Shown here: positions 19,791-55,469 of the stretch, one piece after another | Numbering within the stretch: position 1 is the first letter of the stretch | Layout of the letters: each line of letters opens with the position of its first letter | Assembly (NCBI GenBank): GCA_027493935.1 | Contig: JAOSJV010000010.1 | Location: 814,483-878,482 of the forward strand | Direction: 5' to 3' | Length of the DNA: 64,000 nucleotides | Origin: Burkholderiales bacterium | Lineage (GTDB): Bacteria; Pseudomonadota; Gammaproteobacteria; Burkholderiales; SG8-39 | Translations under genes and position numbers: made by a program | The notes under the pieces: model-generated | The model's input: the letters and a program-made list of their open reading frames with translations, nothing else | Databases searched by the model: none | What the model was told of the DNA's origin: nothing

Positions 19791-20521
19791 CTTCCCGCGA
19801 GTACCTCGGCCACGTGCAGCACCCGCGTGCGCTCGTCGCCGCCGCGGCGCAGCCGCCCCTCGATGTTCAGCATGCAGCCGAGGTCGCCGAGCACCACCGC
19901 GTCGGCGCCGCTCGCCGCGATGTTCGCGCACTTCTTCTCCGCCATCGCGGCCGAGACGTCGCCGAACTTGATCGAAAAGGTGCCGCCGAAGCCGCAGCAC
20001 GCCGTGGCGTCCTTCATCTCCGCGAGCTCGAGGCCAGCGACCCTGGGGGGCGCCCCCCCGGGGCCCCCCCCCCCGCCCCCCCCCCCCCCGAGCTCGCGCA
20101 GCCCCGAGCAGCTGTCGTGGTAGGTCACCGTGCCCTCGAAGGCCCCGGGCACCGCATCGAGCTTCGCCACGTTCGCCAGGAAGTCCGTGAGCTCGTAGGT
20201 CTTGGCGCACAGGCGGCCGATCCGGTCCAGCGTGACAGGCTCGTCGCCGAACAGATCCGGATAGTGCGTGCGGATCATTCCGGCGCAGGAGCCCGACGGC
20301 GCGACCACGTAGTCGAAGCCCTCGAACTCCTCGAGCACCTTGCGCGCGAGTGCCCGGGCCGATGCGCGGTCGCCCGAGTTGTAGCCGGGCTGTCCGCAGC
20401 AGGTCTGGGTCGCCGGCACGGCGACCTCGCAGCCGGCAGCCTCGAGCAGCCGCAGCGCCGCGAAGCCGATCCGCGGACGCACGAGGTCGACGAGACAGGT
20501 GACGAACAGTCCGACGCGCAT
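19775..20521 (-). CDS. lutA: Lactate utilization protein A (LutA, CCG-domain Fe-S oxidoreductase) containing an anomalous homopolymer block
   Basis: ATG 20521 (MRVGLFVTCLVD...). CCG motifs: TQTCCGQPGYNSG and ATACCGFGGTFSIKF. The ORF is intact, but residues LRELGGGGGGGGGPGGAPPRVAGLE derive from the poly-C/G block at 20045-20089. Confidence 0.85.
   Translation of the reverse strand: MRVGLFVTCLVDLVRPRIGFAALRLLEAAGCEVAVPATQTCCGQPGYNSGDRASARALARKVLEEFEGFDYVVAPSGSCAGMIRTHYPDLFGDEPVTLDRIGRLCAKTYELTDFLANVAKLDAVPGAFEGTVTYHDSCSGLRELGGGGGGGGGPGGAPPRVAGLELAEMKDATACCGFGGTFSIKFGDVSAAMAEKKCANIAASGADAVVLGDLGCMLNIEGRLRRGGDERTRVLHVAEVLAGSETGQ
20045..20089. repeat. Compound homopolymer block G6-CG-C7-G4-C11-G-C14 inside lutA
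   Basis: Read directly: GGGGGGCGCCCCCCCGGGGCCCCCCCCCCCGCCCCCCCCCCCCCC. No other run in the window comes close to this length. Confidence 0.95.
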
Positions 20522-27878: not shown

Positions 27879-30347
27879 CCGCAGCCGCCTGGATCGTCGG
27901 ATTCGCCGCGCTCGCGCTGGCGCTCGCCTACGCGGCGGCGCCGGGATGGCTGTGGACCGCGGCGGTCGGCGGCTTCCTGCTTGCGCTTGCGGCCGCCACC
28001 GCGATGCCGGTATGGGCGGCGGCGATCATGCTCGCCGCGTTCGCGATCGCCGCCGTGGCGCTGAACATCACGCCCATCAGGCGCCGGCTCCTGAGCGACC
28101 GGCTGCTCGCGATATTCCGCACGATCGCGCCGCCGATGTCGCAGACCGAGTCCGAGGCGCTGAACGCGGGAACGGTGTGGTGGGACGGCGACCTCTTCTC
28201 GGGCCGGCCCGACTGGGCGAAGCTGCTCGGCTTCCCGCAGCCGAAGCTCACCGCCGAGGAGCAGGCCTTCCTCGGCAACGAGTGCGAGGAGCTCTGCGCG
28301 ATGTCGAACGACTGGGAGCAGACGCATCACAACTACGATATGCCGCCCGAGGTGTGGCAGTACATCAAGGACAAGGGCTTCCTCGGCATGATCATCCCGA
28401 AGCGCTACGGCGGCAAGGAGTTCTCGGCGTACGCGCACTCGCAGGTGATCATGAAGCTCTCCACGCGCTGCAGCGCCACCGCGGTCACGGTGATGGTGCC
28501 GAACTCGCTCGGCCCGGCCGAGCTGCTGCTGCACTACGGCACCGAGGAGCAGAAGCGTCACTACCTGCCGCGCCTCGCGAAGGGGCTCGAGATCCCGGCG
28601 TTTGCGCTGACCAGCCCGCACGCCGGTTCGGACGCCGCCTCGATCCCGGACCGCGGCGTCGTGTGCAAGGGCACGTGGCAGGGCCGGGAGATCGTCGGCA
28701 TGCGCGTGACCTGGGACAAGCGCTACATCACGCTCGGCCCGGTCGCGACGCTGCTTGGCCTCGCGTTCCGGCTCTACGACCCGGACCACCTGCTCGGCTC
28801 CGAGGAGGACGTCGGCATCACCTGCGCGCTCGTTCCGACCGACACGCCGGGCGTCAACATCGGGCGGCGCCACATGCCGCTGAACGCGGTGTTCCAGAAC
28901 GGGCCGAACTGGGGCGAGGACGTCTTCATGCCGCTCGACTGGATCATCGGCGGGTCGAAGATGGCCGGCCAGGGCTGGCGCATGCTGATGGAGTCGCTCG
29001 CCGCCGGCCGCTCGATCTCGCTGCCCTCCTCCAACGTCGGCATGTCGAAGATGGCCGCGCGTACCACCGGCGCCTACTCCCGCGTGCGCGTGCAGTTCCG
29101 CACGCCGATCGGCAAGTTCGACGGCGTCGAGGAGCCGCTCACGCGCATCGGCGCCAACCTCTACATGATGGACGCGGCACGGGTGCTGACCGCCGGCGCG
29201 GTCGACCTCGGCGAGAAGCCCTCGGTGCTCTCGGCGATCGTCAAGTACCACGTCACCGAGCGCAACCGGCAGAACGTCAACGACGCGATGGACGTCCTCG
29301 GCGGCAAGGGCATCTGCCTCGGGCCGTCGAACTTCCTCGGCCGCGCCTACCAGCAGGTGCCGGTCTCGATCACCGTCGAGGGCGCGAACATCCTGACGCG
29401 CAGCATGATCATCTTCGGCCAGGGCGCGATCCGCTGCCACCCGTACGTGCTGAAGGAGATGGAGGCCACGCGCGAGCCGGACCGTCTCAAGGCGTCGGTG
29501 CAGTTCGACCGCGCGCTGTTCGGTCACATCGGGTTCATGGTCTCGAACGCAGTGCGCACGCTGATGATGGGGATGACCGGCTCGCACTGGGTGCGCGTTC
29601 CCGACGTCGCGCCGGAGACGCGCCGCTACTACCAGCAGCTCACGCGCTTCTCGAGCGCCTTCGCCTTCCTCGCCGACGTCTCGATGCTGGTGATCGGCGG
29701 CGCGCTCAAGCGCCGCGAGAAGCTCTCGGCGCGGCTCGGCGACATCCTATCGCTGATGTACCTCTGCTCGGCGACCCTCAAGCGCTACGAGAGCGAGGGC
29801 CGCCAGCCGGCCGACGCACCGCTCATGCACTGGGCGATCTGGGACGCGATGTTCAAGGCGCAGAACGCGTTCGAGGGCGTGATCGCGAACTTCCCGTCGC
29901 GACCCGTGCGGTGGTTGCTGCGCCGCTTCATCTTCCCGCTCGGGCGGCCGTACGTGGTGCCCTCCGACCGGCTCGGCCACGCGGCGGCGAAGCTGCTGAT
30001 CGAACCCACCGCGACGCGCGACCGCCTGACCGCCGGCATGTACCTGCCGAAGGACGAGGCCGACCCGCTCGGCTGCCTCGAGGCCGCGCTCGACGCCGCG
30101 ATCCGGGGCGAGGGCGTCGAGGCCCGCATCCGCGCCGCGCAGAAGTCCGGCGAAATCGCCGGCGAAACGCCCGAGGCGCTGGCGCGCGCCGCGCTCGAGA
30201 AAGGGGGTGATCGACGGCGCCGAGCACGCGGCGCTCGCGCGGGCACACGAGTTGCGCGAGCGCGTGATCCGCGTGGACGATTTCCCGCAGGATTTCGGGC
30301 TGTCGGAGTTCGTGAGCCGCCCGGCGCTCCGCAAGGCCGCGGCATGA
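27875..30347 (+). pseudogene. fadE: Large membrane-anchored acyl-CoA dehydrogenase FadE; one frame break at G5 30203-30207, 48 codons before the stop
   Basis: N-terminal TM helices, then GFLGMIIPKRYGGKEFSAYAHSQVIMKLS, ALTSPHAGSDAAS, GQGWRMLMESLAAGRSISLP and TVEGANILTRSMIIFGQGAIRCHPY, as in E. coli FadE. After ...ALARAALEKG the conserved tail (VIDGAEHAALARAHELRERVIRVDDFPQDF...RKAAA*) continues in the +1 frame to TGA 30345-30347. Confidence 0.9.
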
Positions 30348-31999: not shown

Positions 32000-33955
32000 A
32001 TGAAACCCGTGGACAACCTCTCCCCGGTCGAGGAGTACAGGCACTTCCGCCTGGAGACCGACCGCGACGGCATCGCGTGGCTGACATTCGACCGCGCCGG
32101 CAGCTCGACCAACACCTTCTCGACCGAGGTGATGCGGGAGCTGAACACCGTCCTCGACGTGCTCGCCACGCGAAAGCCGCGCGGACTCGTGATCCGCTCG
32201 GGGAAGAGTTCGGGCTTCATCGCCGGCGCCGACGTCGAGGAGTTCACCCGCATCGAGTCGACCGCCGACGCGCTCGCGATCGTGCGGCGCGGGTGGGATA
32301 CCCTGAACAAGCTCGCCGCGATGCCGTTTTCGACCGTGGCCCTGGTGCGCGGTTTCTGCATGGGCGGCGGACTCGAGCTCGCACTCGCCTGCCGCTACCG
32401 CATCGCGGTCGACGAGCCGGGCACGCGCTTCGCGCTGCCCGAGGTCACGCTCGGTATCCTGCCCGGCTGGGGCGGCGTGATGCGGCTGCCGCGCGTGATC
32501 GGCCCGAACGCCGCGCTCGACATGATGATGACCGGGCGCTCGGTGGACGCGCGGCGCGCGAAACGCATGGGGCTGGTCGACGCCAGCGTTCCGACGCGCG
32601 TGATGGACAACAGCGCGCGCATCATGGTGCTGGAGGCGCCGAAGCCCCGCGAGCTGCCGCTCAAGGACCGGCTGATGAACGGCCGGCTCAAGACGCTCGT
32701 CGCGAAGATCGCGCTGCGCCAGCTCGAGAAGAAGGCGCGCCGCGAGCACTACCCGGCGCCGTACGCGATCCTCGAGCTGTGGCTGAAGCACGACGGCGAT
32801 CCGTTCGCGCCGCCGGAGGGCGATCCGGCTTCGATCGCCTGCCTCGCGCAGCATCCGACCACCCGCAGCCTGATCCGCATCTTCGGGCTGCAGGAGCGCA
32901 TGAAGTCGCTCGGAAAGGAGAGCGACTTCGCCGCCAAGCGGGTGCACGTGGTCGGCGCGGGCACGATGGGCGGCGACATCGCCGCGGTGTGCGCGATGCG
33001 TGGGCTCACCGTGACGCTGCAGGACCAGAGCGCCGAGCGCCTGGCGCCGGCGATGAAGCGCGCCGCCGCGCTCTTCGGCAAGCGGGTCCGAGACAAGCTG
33101 CGCGCGCGCGACGCGATGGACCGGTTGATCCCGGACGTGTCGGGCGACGGCGCGCGCCATGCCGACGTGATCATCGAGGCGATCTTCGAGAATTTGGAGG
33201 CGAAGCGCGCGCTCTTCGCGCGGCTCGAGAAGATCGCGCGGCCGACGGCGATCCTCGCCACCAACACCTCGAGCCTGAAGCTCGCCGATATCGGCGAGGC
33301 GCTCGCCGATCCGGCGCGCCTCGTCGGCCTGCACTTCTTCAACCCGGTGCCGCAGCTGCAGCTGGTCGAGGTGGTCGCCGGCGAGCGGACCGGTCGGGAG
33401 TGGGCCAAGAAGGGCGCAGCGTTCGTGCGCCAGATCGACAAGCTGCCGCTGCCCGTGAAGGACTCGCCCGGGTTCCTGGTGAACCGCGTGCTCGGGCCGT
33501 ACCTGCTGCAGGCGTTCAAGCTCGTCGACGAGGGTGTCGCCAAGGAGACAGTCGACGCCGCCGCAACGCGCTTCGGGATGCCCATGGGCCCGATCGAGCT
33601 CGCTGACACGGTGGGCCTGGATATCTGCGCAGCCGCCGGCAAGTCGCTCGCCGGCGGGGACGCCGCGATGCCGAAAAGCCTCGCGACGCTGATCGACGCC
33701 GGCAAGCTCGGCAAGAAGTCGGGCGAAGGCTTCTACCGCTGGGTCGACGGCAAGCCGCGGAAAGGGCCCGGCGGCGAGCCGAGCGATGCGCTGGCGAACC
33801 GCCTGATCGAGCCCTATCTCGCCGAGGCGAAGAAGGCGGTCGAGGAAGGTGTCGTCGCCGACGCCGACCTCGCCGACGCGGGGCTCGTCTTCGGCACCGG
33901 ATTCGCGCCCTTCCGCGGCGGGCCATTGCATTACATGGCCCGGCGCGGATCGTAA
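32000..33955 (+). CDS. Bifunctional enoyl-CoA hydratase / 3-hydroxyacyl-CoA dehydrogenase (FadB/FadJ-like)
   Basis: Crotonase part FIAGADVEEF...GFCMGGGLELALACRYRI. NAD-binding site VHVVGAGTMGGDIA, and HAD part ATNTSSL...GLHFFNPVPQLQLVEVV...SPGFLVNRVL. 651 aa, intact. Confidence 0.9.
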   Translation: MKPVDNLSPVEEYRHFRLETDRDGIAWLTFDRAGSSTNTFSTEVMRELNTVLDVLATRKPRGLVIRSGKSSGFIAGADVEEFTRIESTADALAIVRRGWDTLNKLAAMPFSTVALVRGFCMGGGLELALACRYRIAVDEPGTRFALPEVTLGILPGWGGVMRLPRVIGPNAALDMMMTGRSVDARRAKRMGLVDASVPTRVMDNSARIMVLEAPKPRELPLKDRLMNGRLKTLVAKIALRQLEKKARREHYPAPYAILELWLKHDGDPFAPPEGDPASIACLAQHPTTRSLIRIFGLQERMKSLGKESDFAAKRVHVVGAGTMGGDIAAVCAMRGLTVTLQDQSAERLAPAMKRAAALFGKRVRDKLRARDAMDRLIPDVSGDGARHADVIIEAIFENLEAKRALFARLEKIARPTAILATNTSSLKLADIGEALADPARLVGLHFFNPVPQLQLVEVVAGERTGREWAKKGAAFVRQIDKLPLPVKDSPGFLVNRVLGPYLLQAFKLVDEGVAKETVDAAATRFGMPMGPIELADTVGLDICAAAGKSLAGGDAAMPKSLATLIDAGKLGKKSGEGFYRWVDGKPRKGPGGEPSDALANRLIEPYLAEAKKAVEEGVVADADLADAGLVFGTGFAPFRGGPLHYMARRGS

Positions 33956-34069
33956 TCCGGTCGCGGCGGGCCATTGCATCGCATGGCCCGGCGCGGATCG
34001 TAATCCGGTCGCGGCGGGCCATTGCATCGCATGGCCCGGCGCGGATCGTAATCCGGTCGCGGCGGGCCA
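33913..34069. repeat. 48-bp tandem repeat, about 3.2 copies, first copy being the fadB 3' end
   Basis: The GGCC phase marker recurs at 33921, 33969, 34017 and 34065. The unit is GGGCCATTGCAT(TA/CG)CATGGCCCGGCGCGGATCGTAATCCGGTCGCGGC. Every full copy carries GGCCAT..ATGGCC and the TAA. Confidence 0.95.
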
Positions 34070-34674: not shown

Positions 34675-35448
34675 CTACGCGCCCGAGCGCCCCCCGCCGA
34701 GCGCCTGCTTGACCGCGCCGAAGACGTCGACCGGCAGCGGAAAGACGATCGTGTTCGACTTGTCGCCCGCGATCGCGGCCAGCGTCTGCATGTAGCGCAG
34801 CTGCATCGCCTCGGGCTGGCGCGCGAGCTGCTGCGCGGCCTGCAGGAGCTTCTCCGCGGCCTGCAGCTCGCCCTCGGCGTGGATCACCTTCGCGCGCCGG
34901 TCGCGTTCGGCCTCGGCCTGCTTGGCGATCGCCCGCACCATCGACTCGTCGATGTCGACATGCTTGATCTCGACGTTCGACACCTTGATGCCCCAGGCGT
35001 CGGTCTGCGCGTCGAGCACCTGCTGGATGTCGAGGTTCAGCTTCTCGCGCTCGGCGAGCATCTCGTCGAGCTCGTGCTTGCCGAGCACGGCGCGCAGCGT
35101 GGTCTGCGCGAGCTGGCTCGTCGCCGAGAGGTAGTTCTCGACCTGGATGATCGCCTTCTCCGGGTCGACTACCCGGAAGTAGACCACCGCGTTCACCTTC
35201 ACCGAGACGTTGTCGCGCGAGATCACATCCTGGCTCGGCACGTCGAGTACCAGCGTACGCAGGTCGACCCGCACCATCTGCTGGATGCCGGGGATGATGA
35301 CGATCAGGCCGGGGCCCTTGACCCGCCAGAACCGGCCGAGCAGGAACACGACGCCGCGCTCGTACTCGCGCAGGATGCGTAGCGACGCGGCGATCGCGAT
35401 GACGATGAACGCGAGGATGCCTGCGTAGCCGATGTTCCATTCGGTCAT
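34675..35448 (-). CDS. SPFH/band-7 (stomatin-like, slipin) membrane protein
   Basis: ATG 35448 ([40 protein letters not shown]...). Sequence [23 protein letters not shown]...[16 protein letters not shown] is typical of prokaryotic stomatins. Confidence 0.9.
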
Positions 35449-36894
35449 GTCTTCTCTCCTTGGCTTGCCTGCTGCTCCGGTTCGACCTCGAGCACGAGGC
35501 CCTTGGTGCCCTTTGACCCGCACGCGCTCGCCCTTGGCGAGCGGCACGGTGCTGACCGCGCGCCACAGCTCGCCGCGCGTGCGCACCCAGCCTTCGCCGG
35601 CGAAGTCGTCGACCACGACGCCGGCGCTGCCGGCGATCTCCTCGCGCCCGGCGAGCACCGGCCGGCTGCGCGCCCGGACCGCGAGCCCGACGATCGCAAA
35701 GACCAGCAACGCGCTCACCACGCCGAGCGTCACGATGAACGCGACCGGCACGCCGAAGCCGGGGAGATCGGTGTCGATCAGCATCAGCCCGCCGAACACG
35801 AACGCGGCCACGCCGCCGATGCCGAGCGCGCCGAAGCTCGGCAGGAAGGCCTCGGCCACCATGAACGCGAGCCCGAGCAGCATCAGCGCGAGGCCGGCGT
35901 AGTTCACCGGCAGGAGCTGCAGCGCGAAAAGCCCGAGCAGAAGGGAGATCGCGCCGACCACGCCCGGCAGCACGAAACCGGGGTTCGAGAACTCGAAGAA
36001 AAGCCCGTAGATCCCGATCATCATCAGGATCAGGGCGACGCTCGGATTGGTGATCACCGCGAGGAGCTCGGTGCGCCAGTCGGGCCGGACGAACTCGGTC
36101 GCCGCGCCGCGCAGCGCGAGCGTGCGCTCGACGCCCTGCACCGTCACCTTGCGGCCGTTCAGCTTGGCGATCAAGTCGGCAACGTCGGTTGCGATGATGT
36201 CGATCACCTTCTGCTCGAGCGCCTCCCTGGACGACAGGCTCACGGCCTCGCGCACCGCACGCTCGGCCCATTCGGCGTTGCGCCCCCTGAGCTGCGCGAG
36301 ACCGCGGATGTAGGCCGAGGCGTCGTGGATCTGCTTGCGCGAGAGCGCGTCCTGCGGCGCGGGCGCCTTCGTCTTGGCGCTCCGGTCCTCGGCCGCATCC
36401 CTCTTCGCGCTCTTCTTCGGATCCTGCTTCGCGTCGCTCTTCTCGTGCGCCTTCTCGGGTCTCTCGTCCGGCTTGTCCTCGCCGCCCGGCCGCGCGCCGC
36501 CGATGCCGATCGCGACCGGCGTCGCCGCGCCGAGATTCGTGGCCGGCGCCATCGCGGCGAAATGGCTCGCGTAGAGGATGTAGGTGCCCGCGCTCGCCGC
36601 GCGCGCGCCGCTCGGGCCGACGAATACCGCCACCGGCACGGTCGAGGCGAGGATCTGCTTGATGATGTCGCGCATCGACGTGTCGAGCCCGCCGGGCGTG
36701 TCCATCTGGATGACGGTCAGCGCGGCGCCACCCTCGGCGGCACGCCGCATGCCCCGCACGAGATAGTCCGAGATGGCCGGCGTGACGGCGCCCTCGAACG
36801 AGAGCACGACCACCTTCGCCGCAGAGGCTGCCGCCTTGTCCTCGGCAGTGGCCGGGAGCTGCGAGCCGACGAGCAACGCCGCGCCCGCGAGCAC
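35445..36894 (-). pseudogene. NfeD-family membrane-bound ClpP-class serine protease; frame break at 35512-35514 fuses it in silico to the SPFH gene
   Basis: [22 protein letters not shown]...IQMDTPGGL...[32 protein letters not shown], then TM helices and the OB-fold tail [22 protein letters not shown]. The natural tail [20 protein letters not shown] lies in the -1 frame and ends at TGA 35445-35447, overlapping the SPFH ATG (ATGA). The N-terminus is uncertain (GTG 36894, or an upstream ATG via another run miscount). Confidence 0.8.
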
Positions 36895-37242
36895 GAAAGC
36901 GCCGGCGCCGCGCGGGCGGCAGCACGCCGTGCGCCGCAGATCGCCCCTGCACTGCGTATGGGTACCATGCGTCGGCTAGGTCCTGGCGATGCCCTCTCGT
37001 GACGACGAGGATACGCGCTGCCCAGCACGGGATCAATGGATCGCTACCGCCGAAAAAGTTCCCGCATCTTGCCGCCGCGCCGCGCGCGTCCTGCGCGCCG
37101 GCGCACCAGGCGCGCGCATGTGCGACCATCGCGGTTGCGGCGCGAACCCACGCCGGCGGCGGGTGTCCATCGGAGTGTCCGATTCCTCGCGGACGCGGCA
37201 AGCGGCACCGTCGCGACACCCGATCGAACCCAGGAGCCCGAA

Positions 37243-39960
37243 GTGCGCGACCCGGCACCGACCGCCATTCTGCTGAAGGACTACGCTCCGCCCGCGTTCC
37301 TCGTCGACACGATCGACCTCGACATCGCGATCTTCGACGACCACGCGCGCGTGCGCGCGACCCTCGCGGTGCGCCGCAATCCGACCGCGCGCGGCGTGCC
37401 GGCGGCGCCGCTCGCACTCGACGGCGACGAGCTTTCCCTCGTCTCGGTCGCGCTCGACGGCCGCGCGCTCGCCGCGGCCGAGTATGCGGTCGCGCCCGAC
37501 CGCCTCACGGTCCATGCGGTGCCCGACGCCTTCACGCTCGCGACCGAAGTGCGCATCGAGCCGCAGAAGAACACCAAGCTCATGGGTCTCTACGCGTCGA
37601 AGGACGGCTACTTCACGCAGTCCGAGGCCGAGGGCTTCCGCCGCATCACCTACTTCATCGACCGGCCGGACGTGATGGCGCGCTACACGTGCACGATTCG
37701 CGCCGATCGCGAACGCTGCCCGCACCTGCTCTCGAACGGCAATCCGGTGGCGGCTGGATTTGAACCACCCCGCCCTGCTGCGCAGGGCACCCTCCTTCCC
37801 AAGGGGGGATCAACCGCCCCGCCTTGAAAAGGAGGGGAAGGGACGGCGCTGGGTGCGCTGGGAAGACCCGTTCCCGAAGCCCTCCTACCTCTTCGCGGTG
37901 GTCGCAGCGAAACTCGACCGCCTGGAGGATAGCTTCGTCACGATGTCGGGCAAGCACGCGAAGCTCGAGATCTACGTCGAGCCCGGCAAGCTCGAGGAGG
38001 CGCGCTTCGCGATGGCGGCGCTCAAGCGCGCGATGAAGTGGGACGAGGAGATGTTCGGTCTCGAGCTCGACCTCGACCACTACATGATCGTCGCGGTCGG
38101 CGATTTCAACATGGGCGCGATGGAGAACAAGGGGCTCAACATCTTCAACACGAAGTACGTGCTCGCGCGGCCGGAGACGGCGACCGACGTCGATTACCAG
38201 AATATCGACCGCGTCGTCGCGCACGAGTATTTCCACAACTGGACCGGCAACCGGGTGACCTGCCGCGACTGGTTCCAGCTCTCGCTCAAGGAGGGGCTGA
38301 CCGTGTTCCGCGACCAGGAGTTCGGCGCGGACACGTACTCGCGCGCGGTGAGCCGGATCCGCGAGGTGCGCAACCTGCGCCTCAGCCAGTTCCCGGAGGA
38401 CGCCGGCCCGATGGCGCACCCGGTGCGCCCGCAGTCCTATATCGAGGTCACGAACTTCTACACCGCCACGGTGTACGAGAAGGGCGCCGAGGTCGTGCGC
38501 ATGCTCCGCACGCTGCTCGGCAAGGACGCGTTCCGGCGCGGCATGGACCTCTACTTCGAGCGCCACGACGGCCAGGCAGTGACCTGCGACGACTTCGTGC
38601 GTGCGATGGCCGATGCCGCGGGCGCCGACCTCGGGCAGTTCATGCGTTGGTACGACCAGGCGGGCACGCCCGTGATCACCGCCTCGGCAGCGTACGACGC
38701 GGCGACGCGACGCTACACACTCGAGCTCGCGCAGTCCTGCCCGCCGACGCCCGGCCAGCCGGTCAAGCTGCCGTTCCACATCCCGGTGGCCGTCGGCCTG
38801 GTCGGTCCGGACGGGCGCGACGTGCCGCTCAGGCTCGAGGGCGAGCCGGCGCCGGCCGGGACGACGCGTGTGCTATCGCTCGAGGCCGAGCGCGAGCGCT
38901 ACACCTTCGTGGACGTGCCGGGCGCGCCGGTGCCCTCGCTCTTGCGCGACTTCTCGGCGCCGGTGATCCTCAGGCACGACTACGACGAGGCGGCGCTCGC
39001 GCGGCTGATGGCGCACGACTCGGATCCGTTCAACCGCTGGGAGGCCGGCCAGCGGCTCGCGACGGGGCTGCTGATGCAGGGCGTCGCGACCCATCAGGCC
39101 GGGCGGCCTTTCGAGGTTCCTGACGCCATCGTGTCCGCGTTCGCGCGGGTGCTCGCCGACGCGCCGCGCGACCCCGCTTTCGCGGCCGAGGCGCTCACGC
39201 TCCCCCCGAGATCTTCCTCGCCGAGCAAATGGACGCGGTCGACCCGGACGCGATCCACGCGGCGCGCAACGCGCTCGCCGCGTACCTCGCGCGCGCGCTG
39301 CGGCGCGAGCTCGCCGCCGCCTACCGCGCGTACGCGGTGCCCGGGCCCTACAGCCCGGACGCCGCGAGCGCCGGCAAGCGCGCGCTGCGCAACCTGTGCC
39401 TCGCCTATCTGATGGAGCTCGCCGACGACGAGGCGCGCGCGCTGGCGATGGCGCAGTTCGAGCGCGCCGACAACATGACCGACGCCATGGCCGCGCTCGG
39501 CGCGCTCGCGCACTGCGACTGCCCCGAGCGCCTCGCGGCGCTCGATGCGTTCTACGCGCGCTGGCGAGGCGAGCCGCTGGTGGTGGACAAATGGCTGCGC
39601 GTGCAGTCGACCTCACGCCTGCCGGGCACGCTCGCCGGGGTCCGGCGGCTGCTTGCGCACCCGGCCTTCTCGCTCAAGAACCCGAACAAGGTCTATGCGC
39701 TCGTCGGCGGCTTCACGCTGGCGAACCACGTGCGCTTCCACGCCGCCGACGGCGGGGGCTATGCGTTCCTGGCCGACCAGGTGATCGCGCTCGATCGGCT
39801 CAACCCGCAGGTCGCCGCGCGCATGGCGCGCGCCTTCGACCGCTGGCGCAAGTTCGACGGCGGGCGTCAGGCTCATGCGCGCGCTGCGCTAGAGCGGGTG
39901 CGCGACACCGAGGGGCTCTCGAAGGACGCCACCGAGGTGGTGACGAAGGCGCTCGCGTAG
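37243..39960 (+). pseudogene. pepN: Aminopeptidase N (PepN); carries an intragenic repeat element and two frame breaks (G6 37803-37808, C6 39202-39207)
   Basis: AGGAG RBS and GTG 37243. Colinear with E. coli PepN: LLSNGN..., WVRWEDPFPKPSYLFA, GAMENKGLNIFN, HEYFHNWTGNRVTCRDWFQLSLKEGLTVFRDQEF, down to ...VVTKALA*. The coding signal runs through listed ORFs 37036..37827, 37760..39412 and 39229..39960. Confidence 0.9.
37757..37845. repeat. SD/anti-SD hairpin element, copy A (half element plus partial duplication) inside pepN
   Basis: AACCACCCCGCC-CTGCTGCGCA-GGGCACCCTCCTTCCCAAGGGGGGA-TC-AACCGCCCCGCC-TTGAAAAGGAGGGGA. This aligns with the right arm of copy C (AACCACCCCGCCGCTCCTCCGCGCGGCACCCCTCCTTGAAAAGGAGGGGA). 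Confidence 0.75.
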
Positions 39961-44964: not shown

Positions 44965-45200
44965 GCCCCGGTCGCGGGGAAGAGTGCGGCCCCGGGGTTC
45001 CCGAGCAGCCGCCGCCGAAGGCGCAAGCGCCCGCAATCGCTCAGGCGAGAGTACTCCACGACCGGGGGCGGCGTTCGCCCCGCAACTCTGGAGAGCGGCG
45101 AGCCGGGGCTCGCCCACCGAAGGGGCACGCGGCGCGCGGCCGGTGGTGATCCCGGCCGGTGGTGCGACCGTAAACTCTCAGGTCAAAGGACAGAGGGGTG
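44965..45200 (+). promoter_or_regulatory. Tandem glycine riboswitch (two aptamers) in the gcvT leader
   Basis: Aptamer 1: GGGAAGAG...GCCGCCGAAGGCGCAA...CTCAGGCGAGAGTAC. Aptamer 2: CTCTGGAGAG...CACCGAAGGGGCA...CTCTCAGGTCAAAGGACAGAG. These match the conserved GGAGAG / ACCGAAGGGGCAA / CUCAGGCAAAAGGAC cores, upstream of gcvTHP as in many bacteria. Confidence 0.8.
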
Positions 45201-45228
45201 ATCCGGGAAGACCGGCATCGCCCCTTTT
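45195..45228 (+). terminator. Riboswitch expression platform: GC-rich hairpin plus T4 (intrinsic terminator)
   Basis: GGGGTGATCCGG-GAAGA-CCGG(C)ATCGCCCC followed by TTTT. The 5' arm overlaps the 3' end of aptamer 2 (ACAGAGGGG), consistent with a glycine-ON switch. Confidence 0.6.
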
Positions 45229-46364: not shown

Positions 46365-46531
46365 TTCCCCCTCTTCAAGGGGTGCCGGCGAAGCCGGCGG
46401 GGTGGTTGCTGCGATTGCAGTTTGCAGGGCGCGCACCACCCCGGCCGCTCGCGCGGCCACCCATCCTCGGGGAGGAAGGGACAGAAACGCACGGCGCGTC
46501 GCAGCACGGCACCCCTCGGAGAGGAGGGGAC
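46365..46531. repeat. SD/anti-SD hairpin palindromic element, copy B (gcvT-gcvH spacer)
   Basis: Left arm TTTCCCCCTCTTCAAGGGGTGCCGGCGAAGCCGGCGGGGTGGTTGC. Right arm GCGCACCACCCCGGCCGCTCGCGCGGCCACCCATCCTCGGGGAGGAAGGGA. An extra hairpin CGGCACCCCTCGGAGAGGAGGGGAC follows. Confidence 0.75.
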
Positions 46532-55341: not shown

Positions 55342-55469
55342 TTTCCCCTCCTCTTCGAGGAGAGGTGGCCGCGCAGCGGCCGGGGTGGTGCGCACGCGCC
55401 AGGAGGCGCGGTCGCCGAAACCACCCCGCCGCTCCTCCGCGCGGCACCCCTCCTTGAAAAGGAGGGGAC
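55342..55469. repeat. SD/anti-SD hairpin palindromic element, copy C (best-preserved)
   Basis: Left arm TTTCCCCTCCTCTTCGAGGAGAGGTGGCCGCGCAGCGGCCGGGGTGGTGC. Right arm AAACCACCCCGCCGCTCCTCCGCGCGGCACCCCTCCTTGAAAAGGAGGGGAC. The reverse complement of the right arm aligns with the left arm along its length. Confidence 0.8.

Follow-up and report, generated by a model that had tools for sequence, protein, structure and literature searches.

Palindromic repeats that lie within genes without interrupting them have been described in several groups of bacteria. Rickettsia palindromic elements (RPEs) sit within protein-coding genes, in frame (Ogata et al. 2000; see the summaries in PMC10969869 and PMC3733652), and monomers or dimers of repetitive extragenic palindromic (REP) sequences are found within open reading frames (ORFs), to which they add 20-30 residues, in several phyla and in organisms including Thauera; Di Nocera et al. 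(2013) argue against a functional constraint on them (PMC3733652). Intragenic ERIC sequences (for the repetitive intergenic consensus of enterobacteria) and other MITEs (miniature transposable elements with inverted repeats) also give in-frame fusions (Delihas, cited in PMC10969869 and PMC3184786), which for intragenic MITEs have been called 'not unusual' in a review (PMC10969869), and REPINs are inverted doublets of REPs (Bertels and Rainey, discussed in PMC8049555). Here we describe a repeat of this general kind in pepN, the gene for aminopeptidase N, on a stretch of 64,000 nucleotides (nt) from contig JAOSJV010000010.1 (hereafter the window; 70.7% GC), which belongs to the metagenome-assembled genome (MAG) of an uncultured member of the Burkholderiales. 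The insert is part of a multi-copy family that is also found between genes, and it is present in frame at the same junction in orthologous genes; the most probable reading is that it is translated as a loop of the enzyme and that the frameshift of the deposited gene is artefactual. Events of this type are already known from the RPEs and the intragenic REPs, and the description of the locus as an unusual example in a first-pass annotation of the window, made from its sequence alone, was overstated, such in-frame repeats having been recorded both as RPEs of Rickettsia and as REPs of several phyla (PMC10969869, PMC3733652).

The gene (37243-39960, + strand, GTG start) is identified from its sequence as encoding aminopeptidase N of family M1, on the basis of full-length colinearity and of its exopeptidase and zinc motifs. 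Its frame can be repaired by taking one G out of the G6 run at 37803-37808 and inserting an extra C in the C6 run at 39202-39207; the resulting 905-residue protein aligns from end to end with Escherichia coli PepN (E about 1e-262 over 900 residues). In the repaired translation, GAMEN and HEYFH motifs are readable, the zinc site conforms to HEXXH-X18-E (HEYFHNWTGNRVTCRDWFQLSLKEG), and the Pfam domains PF17900, PF01433, PF11940 and PF17432 are present in the PepN homologues, the closest of which are 84-88% identical (P0001 88%, P0002 85%, P0003 84%). The sole large gap in the alignment to the E. coli enzyme falls between LLSNGNPVAAG and GRRWVRWEDPF, a position taken by ELEN in E. coli; the colinearity outside this one segment, already reported in the first-pass annotation, is thus borne out. 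As sequenced, pepN occupies three frames separated by two 1-nt frameshifts. Frame 1 (ORF 37036-37827) ends at the TGA at 37825-37827, frame 2 (ORF 37760-39412) takes over from inside the insert to about 39205, and frame 1 is used again from about 39202 to the natural stop. The shift from frame 1 to frame 2 and the TGA had been recognised at the outset, and the second frameshift had been overlooked. The first site (37790-37808, + strand) lies in the second hairpin of the first repeat unit and includes a C3 run (37790-37792) and the G6 run, with either one base extra or two bases missing; the second (39202-39207, + strand) is the C6 run, one base short in comparison with the related loci L001 and L002 (LTLP-SE/PE-IFLAEQ). 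The N-terminal fragment has been deposited as MCZ7565528.1, 'hypothetical protein M5U08_18490' (194 aa), on a contig of 880,511 bp.

The inserted segment measures 85 nt as sequenced (37759-37843, + strand) and is bounded by a Gly codon (37756-37758) and an Arg codon (37844-37846), which keeps the length of about 85 bp first proposed and corrects its limits. It is built from two units of a repeat with two hairpins, A and B. Unit 1 (37762-37810, + strand), delimited by covariance modelling and covariation, reads GAACCACCCCG, hairpin A (CCCTGC-TGC-GCAGGG), CACC, hairpin B (CCCTCCTT-CCCA-AGGGGGG) and AT. Unit 2 (37812-37838, + strand; AACCGCCCCGCC / TTGAAAAGGAGGGGA) is a remnant, of which only the initial 12 nt and hairpin B's 3' half are left. 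Alignment to the complete tandem dimers of L001 (10640-10740) and L002 (10517-10615) shows that it has lost 21 nt internally, in frame. The TGA stop corresponds to the hairpin-B loop of this second unit, read in the wrong frame. All three forward frames of the repeat element are open and the inserts of the intact genes are multiples of three in length (51 nt for a monomer, about 102 nt for a dimer), and the gene would therefore have stayed intact.

Membership of the insert in a repeat family was assessed with a covariance model, R1, for which only intergenic copies were used. There were seven of them: four in the window (46365-46408, 46433-46482, 55343-55391 and 55418-55469), one in L001 and two in L084. 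R1 matches unit 1 of the window pepN (37762-37810) with 36.7 bits (E = 3e-6) and gives a weak, partial match to the unit 2 remnant (37817-37837, 13.9 bits). The orthologous pepN units in L001, L002 and L083 score 39-70 bits. When L091 is included, there are six such units, five of which have E-values of about 1e-9 to 1e-13, unit 1 of L002 reaching about 1e-6. The 12-mer AACCACCCCGCC, with one mismatch allowed, occurs four times in the window, where chance alone would give 0.22. In total, 27 copies of the family (25 distinct) were collected across 11 sources. Over the 25 distinct copies, 98.2% of the cells are paired and both-sided changes are seen at eight pairs. Hairpin A is variable in sequence, with compensatory changes at six of its six pairs, and hairpin B (CCCCTCCTT-NNNN-AAGGAGGGG) is almost invariant; the observed covariation was reached by none of 500 shuffles, and the pairing is destroyed by sliding the 3' partners. 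The palindromic two-hairpin structure of the unit of ~49 nt is thus maintained, with covariation support, and the pepN insert belongs to a multi-copy family that is also found between genes. Both the palindromic nature of the element and its kinship with the two sets of intergenic copies (46365-46531 and, as delimited here, 55343-55469) had been put forward in the first-pass annotation and are upheld by these results. An alternative, the first half of which was considered there as well, is that the segment is an ancient, conserved loop of PepN that owes nothing to the intergenic copies, or else that, the genome being rich in GC, the likeness is a coincidence. Nothing but the overall high GC content of the window speaks for this explanation. 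Against it stand the matches of a model trained on intergenic copies, the excess of the 12-mer and the empty sites: the loop has only 10 residues in E. coli, in the next-closest orthologues and, among the contig-scan matches listed, of which the best locus is 70% identical, in Pseudomonas and most Proteobacteria. We have rejected both versions of this explanation, which is extremely improbable.

The intergenic copies differ from the pepN copies in their arrangement. The spacer between gcvT and gcvH (46365-46531) holds an inverted doublet (46365-46408 on the - strand and 46433-46482 on the + strand; 53 and 66 bits with R1) followed by a degenerate third unit (46484-46531, + strand; 14 bits), and a second intergenic inverted doublet extends over 55343-55469 (55343-55391 on the - strand, 72.6 bits; 55418-55469 on the + strand, 61.6 bits). 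Inverted doublets with spacers of 12-26 nt are the usual intergenic form in the window and in L084, L089, L090 and L092, whereas in pepN the copies are singletons or direct tandem dimers, never inverted doublets. The syntenic gcvT-gcvH spacer is occupied by family copies in the window, in L001 (14567-14615) and in L084 (14861-14970), as an inverted doublet in the window and L084. Since L084 carries repeats in this spacer and has an empty pepN site, both the occupied gcvT-gcvH site and the family itself would be older than the pepN insertion. A repeat finder run on the whole window missed the family amid GC-rich noise, and the copies were recovered by regular expressions and the covariance model. 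A search of Rfam matched the repeat to no family, its sole hits being two glycine riboswitch aptamers; these form a tandem pair (RF00504, 45 and 49 bits) at 44967-45203, upstream of gcvT-gcvH-gcvP, which is the standard arrangement. Clusters of several family units or half-units were also observed in the metagenome contigs L093 (2581-2658 and upstream) and L088 (about 560-640), with a run of GAACCAC-type 5' arms devoid of hairpins in L093; the family therefore forms arrays outside pepN too.

These features allow the element to be set against the known systems. With the RPEs it shares the character of a short, palindromic, multi-copy repeat that occurs both between genes and within ORFs, in frame in the intact orthologues, and would add to an otherwise conserved enzyme an extra peptide that is apparently tolerated. 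RPEs, however, are about 100-150 bp long, AT-rich and typical of reduced intracellular genomes, whereas the pepN element has ~49 nt, is GC-rich, forms two hairpins and belongs to a free-living, uncultured lineage of Burkholderiales. RPEs are moreover spread over many genes of one genome, while the recurrence seen in PepN concerns one loop of one protein across many lineages, and a CGTC tag marks the repeats of R. conorii, the short RPE-4 and RPE-6 among them, whereas the pepN family has neither a CGTC nor a GTAG tag. The intragenic REPs come close in that monomers or dimers lie wholly within ORFs and add about 20-30 residues, including in the betaproteobacterium Thauera. They differ by their terminal GTAG or CGTC tetranucleotide and their link to RAYT or TIRYT transposases, the pepN family having no conserved tag: no GTAG/CTAC or CGTC/GACG motif is found at a fixed position in the 27 aligned copies, in which such tetranucleotides occur only sporadically and internally. 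Membership of the GTAG/CGTC REP superfamily was rejected for this reason. PepN is absent from the REP-carrying ORFs in the searchable part of the supplementary files of PMC3733652, where the only aminopeptidase is a 612-aa protein of R. conorii. The intergenic copies of the family are inverted doublets as in REPINs, but the pepN copies, being singletons or direct tandem dimers, are not. Like ERIC sequences and other MITEs, the family consists of small non-autonomous repeats with open frames that are found inside genes and add peptide segments. In contrast to MITEs, with their terminal inverted repeats, target-site duplication and usual parent insertion sequence, the pepN unit is a pair of hairpins that is not bounded by terminal inverted repeats and shows no duplication at its junctions when filled and empty sites are compared. 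Given that it lacks a tag, is not an inverted doublet in pepN and shows none of the hallmarks of a MITE, we do not class it as a RAYT-associated REP, a REPIN or a MITE.

Alignment of orthologues, suggested in the first-pass annotation as a test of lineage specificity, proved informative and resolved filled and empty versions of the same site. The three closest homologues (P0001-P0003) have 912-951 residues instead of the usual ~880 because two complete units in direct tandem lie at the same junction, in frame; in the DNA of L001 and L002 the two canonical units are 52 nt apart. Another in-frame dimer is located at the same pepN junction in the metagenome contig L091. A single unit of 51 nt is present in P0004 and in P0005/L083 (78% identical), with the same 5' junction, at which GGA-YTC-GAA directly precedes CCACCCCG. 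The frame runs uninterrupted across the element in all six of these orthologues (P0001-P0005 and L091). The site is empty, with the ordinary loop of 10 residues, in P0006-P0015 (about 75% identical), among them P0010/L084. The window itself differs from L001 and L002 by the in-frame deletion of 21 nt in unit 2 and by two bases missing in hairpin B of unit 1. Since the same element is found at the same junction in intact orthologues, the insertion would predate the window strain and be tolerated in frame; to judge from these comparisons, it has been kept in frame through considerable divergence.

To place the insert in the protein, we modelled P0003 with AlphaFold2 from an alignment of 43 sequences (mean predicted local distance difference test score, pLDDT, 77; catalytic domain poorly modelled). 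Residues 177-205 have a pLDDT of about 32, well under 50, and no secondary structure, and they are situated between strands 166-172 and 208-214. The insert is therefore predicted to expand the turn of a beta-hairpin in the N-terminal beta-domain. The first-pass annotation had spoken of 'domestication' and 'exonisation' of the element in an enzyme of an 'essential-type'. PepN is dispensable in E. coli, and this last label is unjustified. The other two terms imply a gain of function and are not supported: the insert is predicted to be disordered (pLDDT <50), close relatives differ in its copy number and others lack it, a pattern compatible with neutral tolerance. The loop seems to be tolerated, not required.

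Whether the frameshift at the insert is real bears on the state of the gene. Comparison with two intact syntenic relatives uncovered nine uncompensated 1-nt indels in conserved coding sequences over about 17 kb of the window. They are placed at 30200 (acyl-CoA dehydrogenase), 35512 (nfeD, an extra T), 37790 and 37805 (the pepN insert), 39202 (pepN), 42186 (a small ORF), 44453 and 44680 (an FGE-sulfatase gene) and 46281 (the C-terminus of gcvT). The assembly appears prone to indel errors, and any pseudogene call in the window needs read support. At the insert, blastn against L001 and L002 places 1-nt deletions of the window at 37790/37793 and at 37805. Relative to the orthologues and the family consensus, the window reads C3 instead of C4 at 37790-37792 and GGGGGG instead of GGAGGGG at 37803-37808, and the other copies of the family hardly vary at either of these two positions of hairpin B. 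Restoring the C and the A yields CACCCCTCCTTCCCAAGGAGGGGA, which is exactly the hairpin of L083, and with it a perfect hairpin B and the peptide GTPPSQGGDQ. The repair proposed in the first-pass annotation, G6 to G5, does produce the continuous ORF that was quoted, with the peptide GTLLPKGDQ and a shorter stem. It is probably not the true sequence, the two-base restoration fitting the family better and being much closer to P0001 and P0002. The ratio of nonsynonymous to synonymous substitution rates (Ka/Ks), computed with L001, amounts to 0.185 for the part of the gene that precedes the insert, 0.172 for the part enclosed by the two frameshifts and 0.206 for the part beyond the second, and the constraint on pepN is thus not relaxed past either frameshift.

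We therefore consider it likely that the deposited +1 frameshift is an assembly artefact and that the gene is truly intact. Of the two possibilities raised in the first-pass annotation, the translated surface loop combined with a homopolymer error is thereby favoured (by the six intact orthologues, the density of indels and the Ka/Ks values) over inactivation of pepN by a MITE-like element. A different kind of inactivation is conceivable, in which a long-standing in-frame repeat allele was recently disabled by slippage in the C and G runs of the repeat and in the C6 run at 39202-39207, the gene being a young pseudogene. The deposited sequence does read this way, with its N-terminal fragment annotated as a separate protein, homopolymer runs within a hairpin are natural sites of slippage, and independent contigs agree with two stretches of the window at every base. 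On the other hand, seven further 1-nt indels hit neighbouring conserved genes (including acyl-CoA dehydrogenase, nfeD, gcvT and FGE-sulfatase), which is implausible for a free-living genome of 70% GC with intact synteny, Ka/Ks is not raised after either frameshift, and pepN has acquired neither stop-codon substitutions nor larger deletions. A recent pseudogene is, on balance, quite unlikely.

Several points nevertheless weigh against an intact gene with a translated loop. Two independent Logan contigs, from other sequencing runs, are 100% identical to the window over 1.3 and 1.5 kb (2.8 kb in total), which shows that the assembly is not poor throughout; none of the nine indel sites falls within these contigs, which neither confirm nor contradict them. 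The segment 37790-37808 is known from the deposited assembly alone, and the G6 run and the frameshift could both be real. Some indel sites, such as 44453, fall outside long homopolymers. The translation of the loop is predicted from sequence, all of the carriers being MAGs or metagenome contigs, and the description 'disordered surface loop' combines low model confidence with homology to the E. coli fold. The same strain is present in SRR22401806 and SRR28430726. The window-specific deletion junction CAACCGCCCCGCCTTGAAAAGGAGGGG was not found in a scan of the metagenome collection, protein searches with insert-centred queries of 217 and 102 aa yielded nothing but the N-terminal fragment of the window itself (P0122) and pieces of unrelated, broken pepN genes, an exact look-up of the 93-aa protein beside the site at 30200 gave no record, and one of P0122 gave no gene record. 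A frame-restoring sequence such as CACCCCTCCTTCCCAAGGAGGGGAT would support an intact gene, and consistent C3 plus G6 a pseudogene; at the protein level, the predicted junction-spanning peptides are GFEPPRPAAQGTPP and LLEKEG-x-GRHW.

Taking the gene as intact, the following history can be proposed. A REP-like double-hairpin repeat of ~49 nt, normally present as intergenic inverted doublets in this lineage of Burkholderiales, would have inserted in an ancestor into the pepN coding sequence, at a surface beta-hairpin turn of the N-terminal beta-domain, and would be translated there as a Pro/Gly-rich loop predicted to be disordered. In the lineage of the window, the second unit would later have lost 21 nt in frame. 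The +1 frameshift would stem from consensus errors in the C- and G-runs of hairpin B in an error-prone assembly, the true gene being intact and presumably encoding NPVAAG-FEPPRPAAQGTPPSQGGDQPPRLEKEGKG-RRWVRW or a close variant. As for annotation, pepN is then probably intact and decorated by a repeat, and is neither a 194-aa hypothetical protein nor a gene killed by a mobile element. A GC-rich hairpin with C and G runs is also the type of sequence in which consensus errors of long reads yield false pseudogenes. The locus would extend the in-frame 'decoration' of enzymes by palindromic repeats, best known in Rickettsia, to free-living, GC-rich, uncultured Burkholderiales, and it offers a natural series (empty site, monomer, dimer and deleted dimer) in one well-characterised enzyme with solved structures, among them 2HPT and 2DQ6 of the E. 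coli protein, in which the turn reads VAQG-ELEN-GRHW.

The aspect which is new here concerns the turn itself. We aligned the window protein with 120 homologues. In this set, which was retrieved with an insert-bearing query and may therefore be enriched for inserts, the beta-hairpin turn is the only internal site with insertions of more than 10 residues, and 23 of the 120 homologues have at least eight extra residues there, up to 41. Long inserts of this kind occur nowhere else in the protein, and those that were sampled come from different repeat families. The inserts differ by lineage and resemble translated palindromes. In P0016/L087 the peptide EPLTPALSPAGGEG occurs twice and the DNA forms the hairpin CCCTCTCCCCC-GCC-GGGGGAGAGGG; in P0018 (L085 and L086) a peptide ending in GTPFDKG, also present twice, corresponds to the hairpin CCCCCTT-TGAC-AAGGGGG; and L003 has the hairpin CCCTCTCCC-AG-GGGGAGAGGG. 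Diverse insert peptides are known at the protein level from P0021, P0027, P0052/53, P0099 and others. Similar repeats are found between genes of the same contig in L086 (13259-13300) and L087 (3947-3972). At least three different hairpin families are present at this one PepN turn, in different lineages. In a neighbour-joining tree computed with the loop masked, the insert-bearing sequences are scattered among insert-free ones.

It is tempting to regard the turn as a true hotspot, into which unrelated REP-like families have inserted independently and repeatedly, always in frame, in many lineages of Burkholderiales. If this were so, it would imply either that integration within a coding sequence is site-specific or that a PepN with a longer, flexible loop is selected for. 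We nonetheless hold the idea to be rather doubtful. The loop could be targeted or selected, and not merely tolerated, if the integration of REP-like elements preferred a DNA motif or structure at this point or if a flexible loop were favoured (domestication). The restriction of long inserts to this one turn in 23 of 120 homologues, the use by different lineages of different hairpin families, each like the intergenic repeats on its own contig, and the scatter of the inserts in the tree all point in this direction. However, neither a target-site duplication nor a shared target motif could be defined from the filled and empty pepN junctions, the protein sequence of the insert is not conserved between lineages, its copy number is variable and disorder is predicted for the loop. 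A uniquely permissive turn, with purifying selection elsewhere, would give the same pattern, which the insert-bearing query may have accentuated, and targeting or selection of the loop therefore seems unlikely. The pattern may reflect independent insertions filtered by a uniquely permissive turn, a preference for the target site, or an old insertion that gene conversion with other repeats of the same genome has renewed. The presence of several hairpin families at one turn provides a concrete way to ask whether target preference or structural tolerance is at work, and this hotspot behaviour is the part most worth following up.

Some further observations concern the assembly of the window and pepN in other assemblies. 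A 739-aa ORF that looks like an NfeD-stomatin 'fusion' (34675-36894, - strand) was rejected as a real gene; it is made by the 1-nt insertion at 35512. Many short pepN fragments of 60-115 aa are found on very long contigs (50 kb to 1.7 Mb) from other MAGs (P0243, P0250, P0264, P0279, P0281 and P0291); frameshifts therefore often disrupt pepN in long-read assemblies of MAGs at large, not in this one alone. A tandem repeat of 48 nt (33914-34069; 3.2 copies, 98% identical) starts ~25 nt upstream of the position at which the fadB-like (ECH/3HCDH) gene of the relatives ends and runs into the spacer. A Logan contig of SRR22401806 that is otherwise 100% identical has a single copy of this repeat, which reflects either a collapse in short-k-mer assembly or real variation in copy number. 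Lastly, the tract G6-CG-C7-GGGG-C11-G-C14 at 20045-20089, by far the longest set of C-runs in the window, could be an assembly artefact or a slippage-prone tract.

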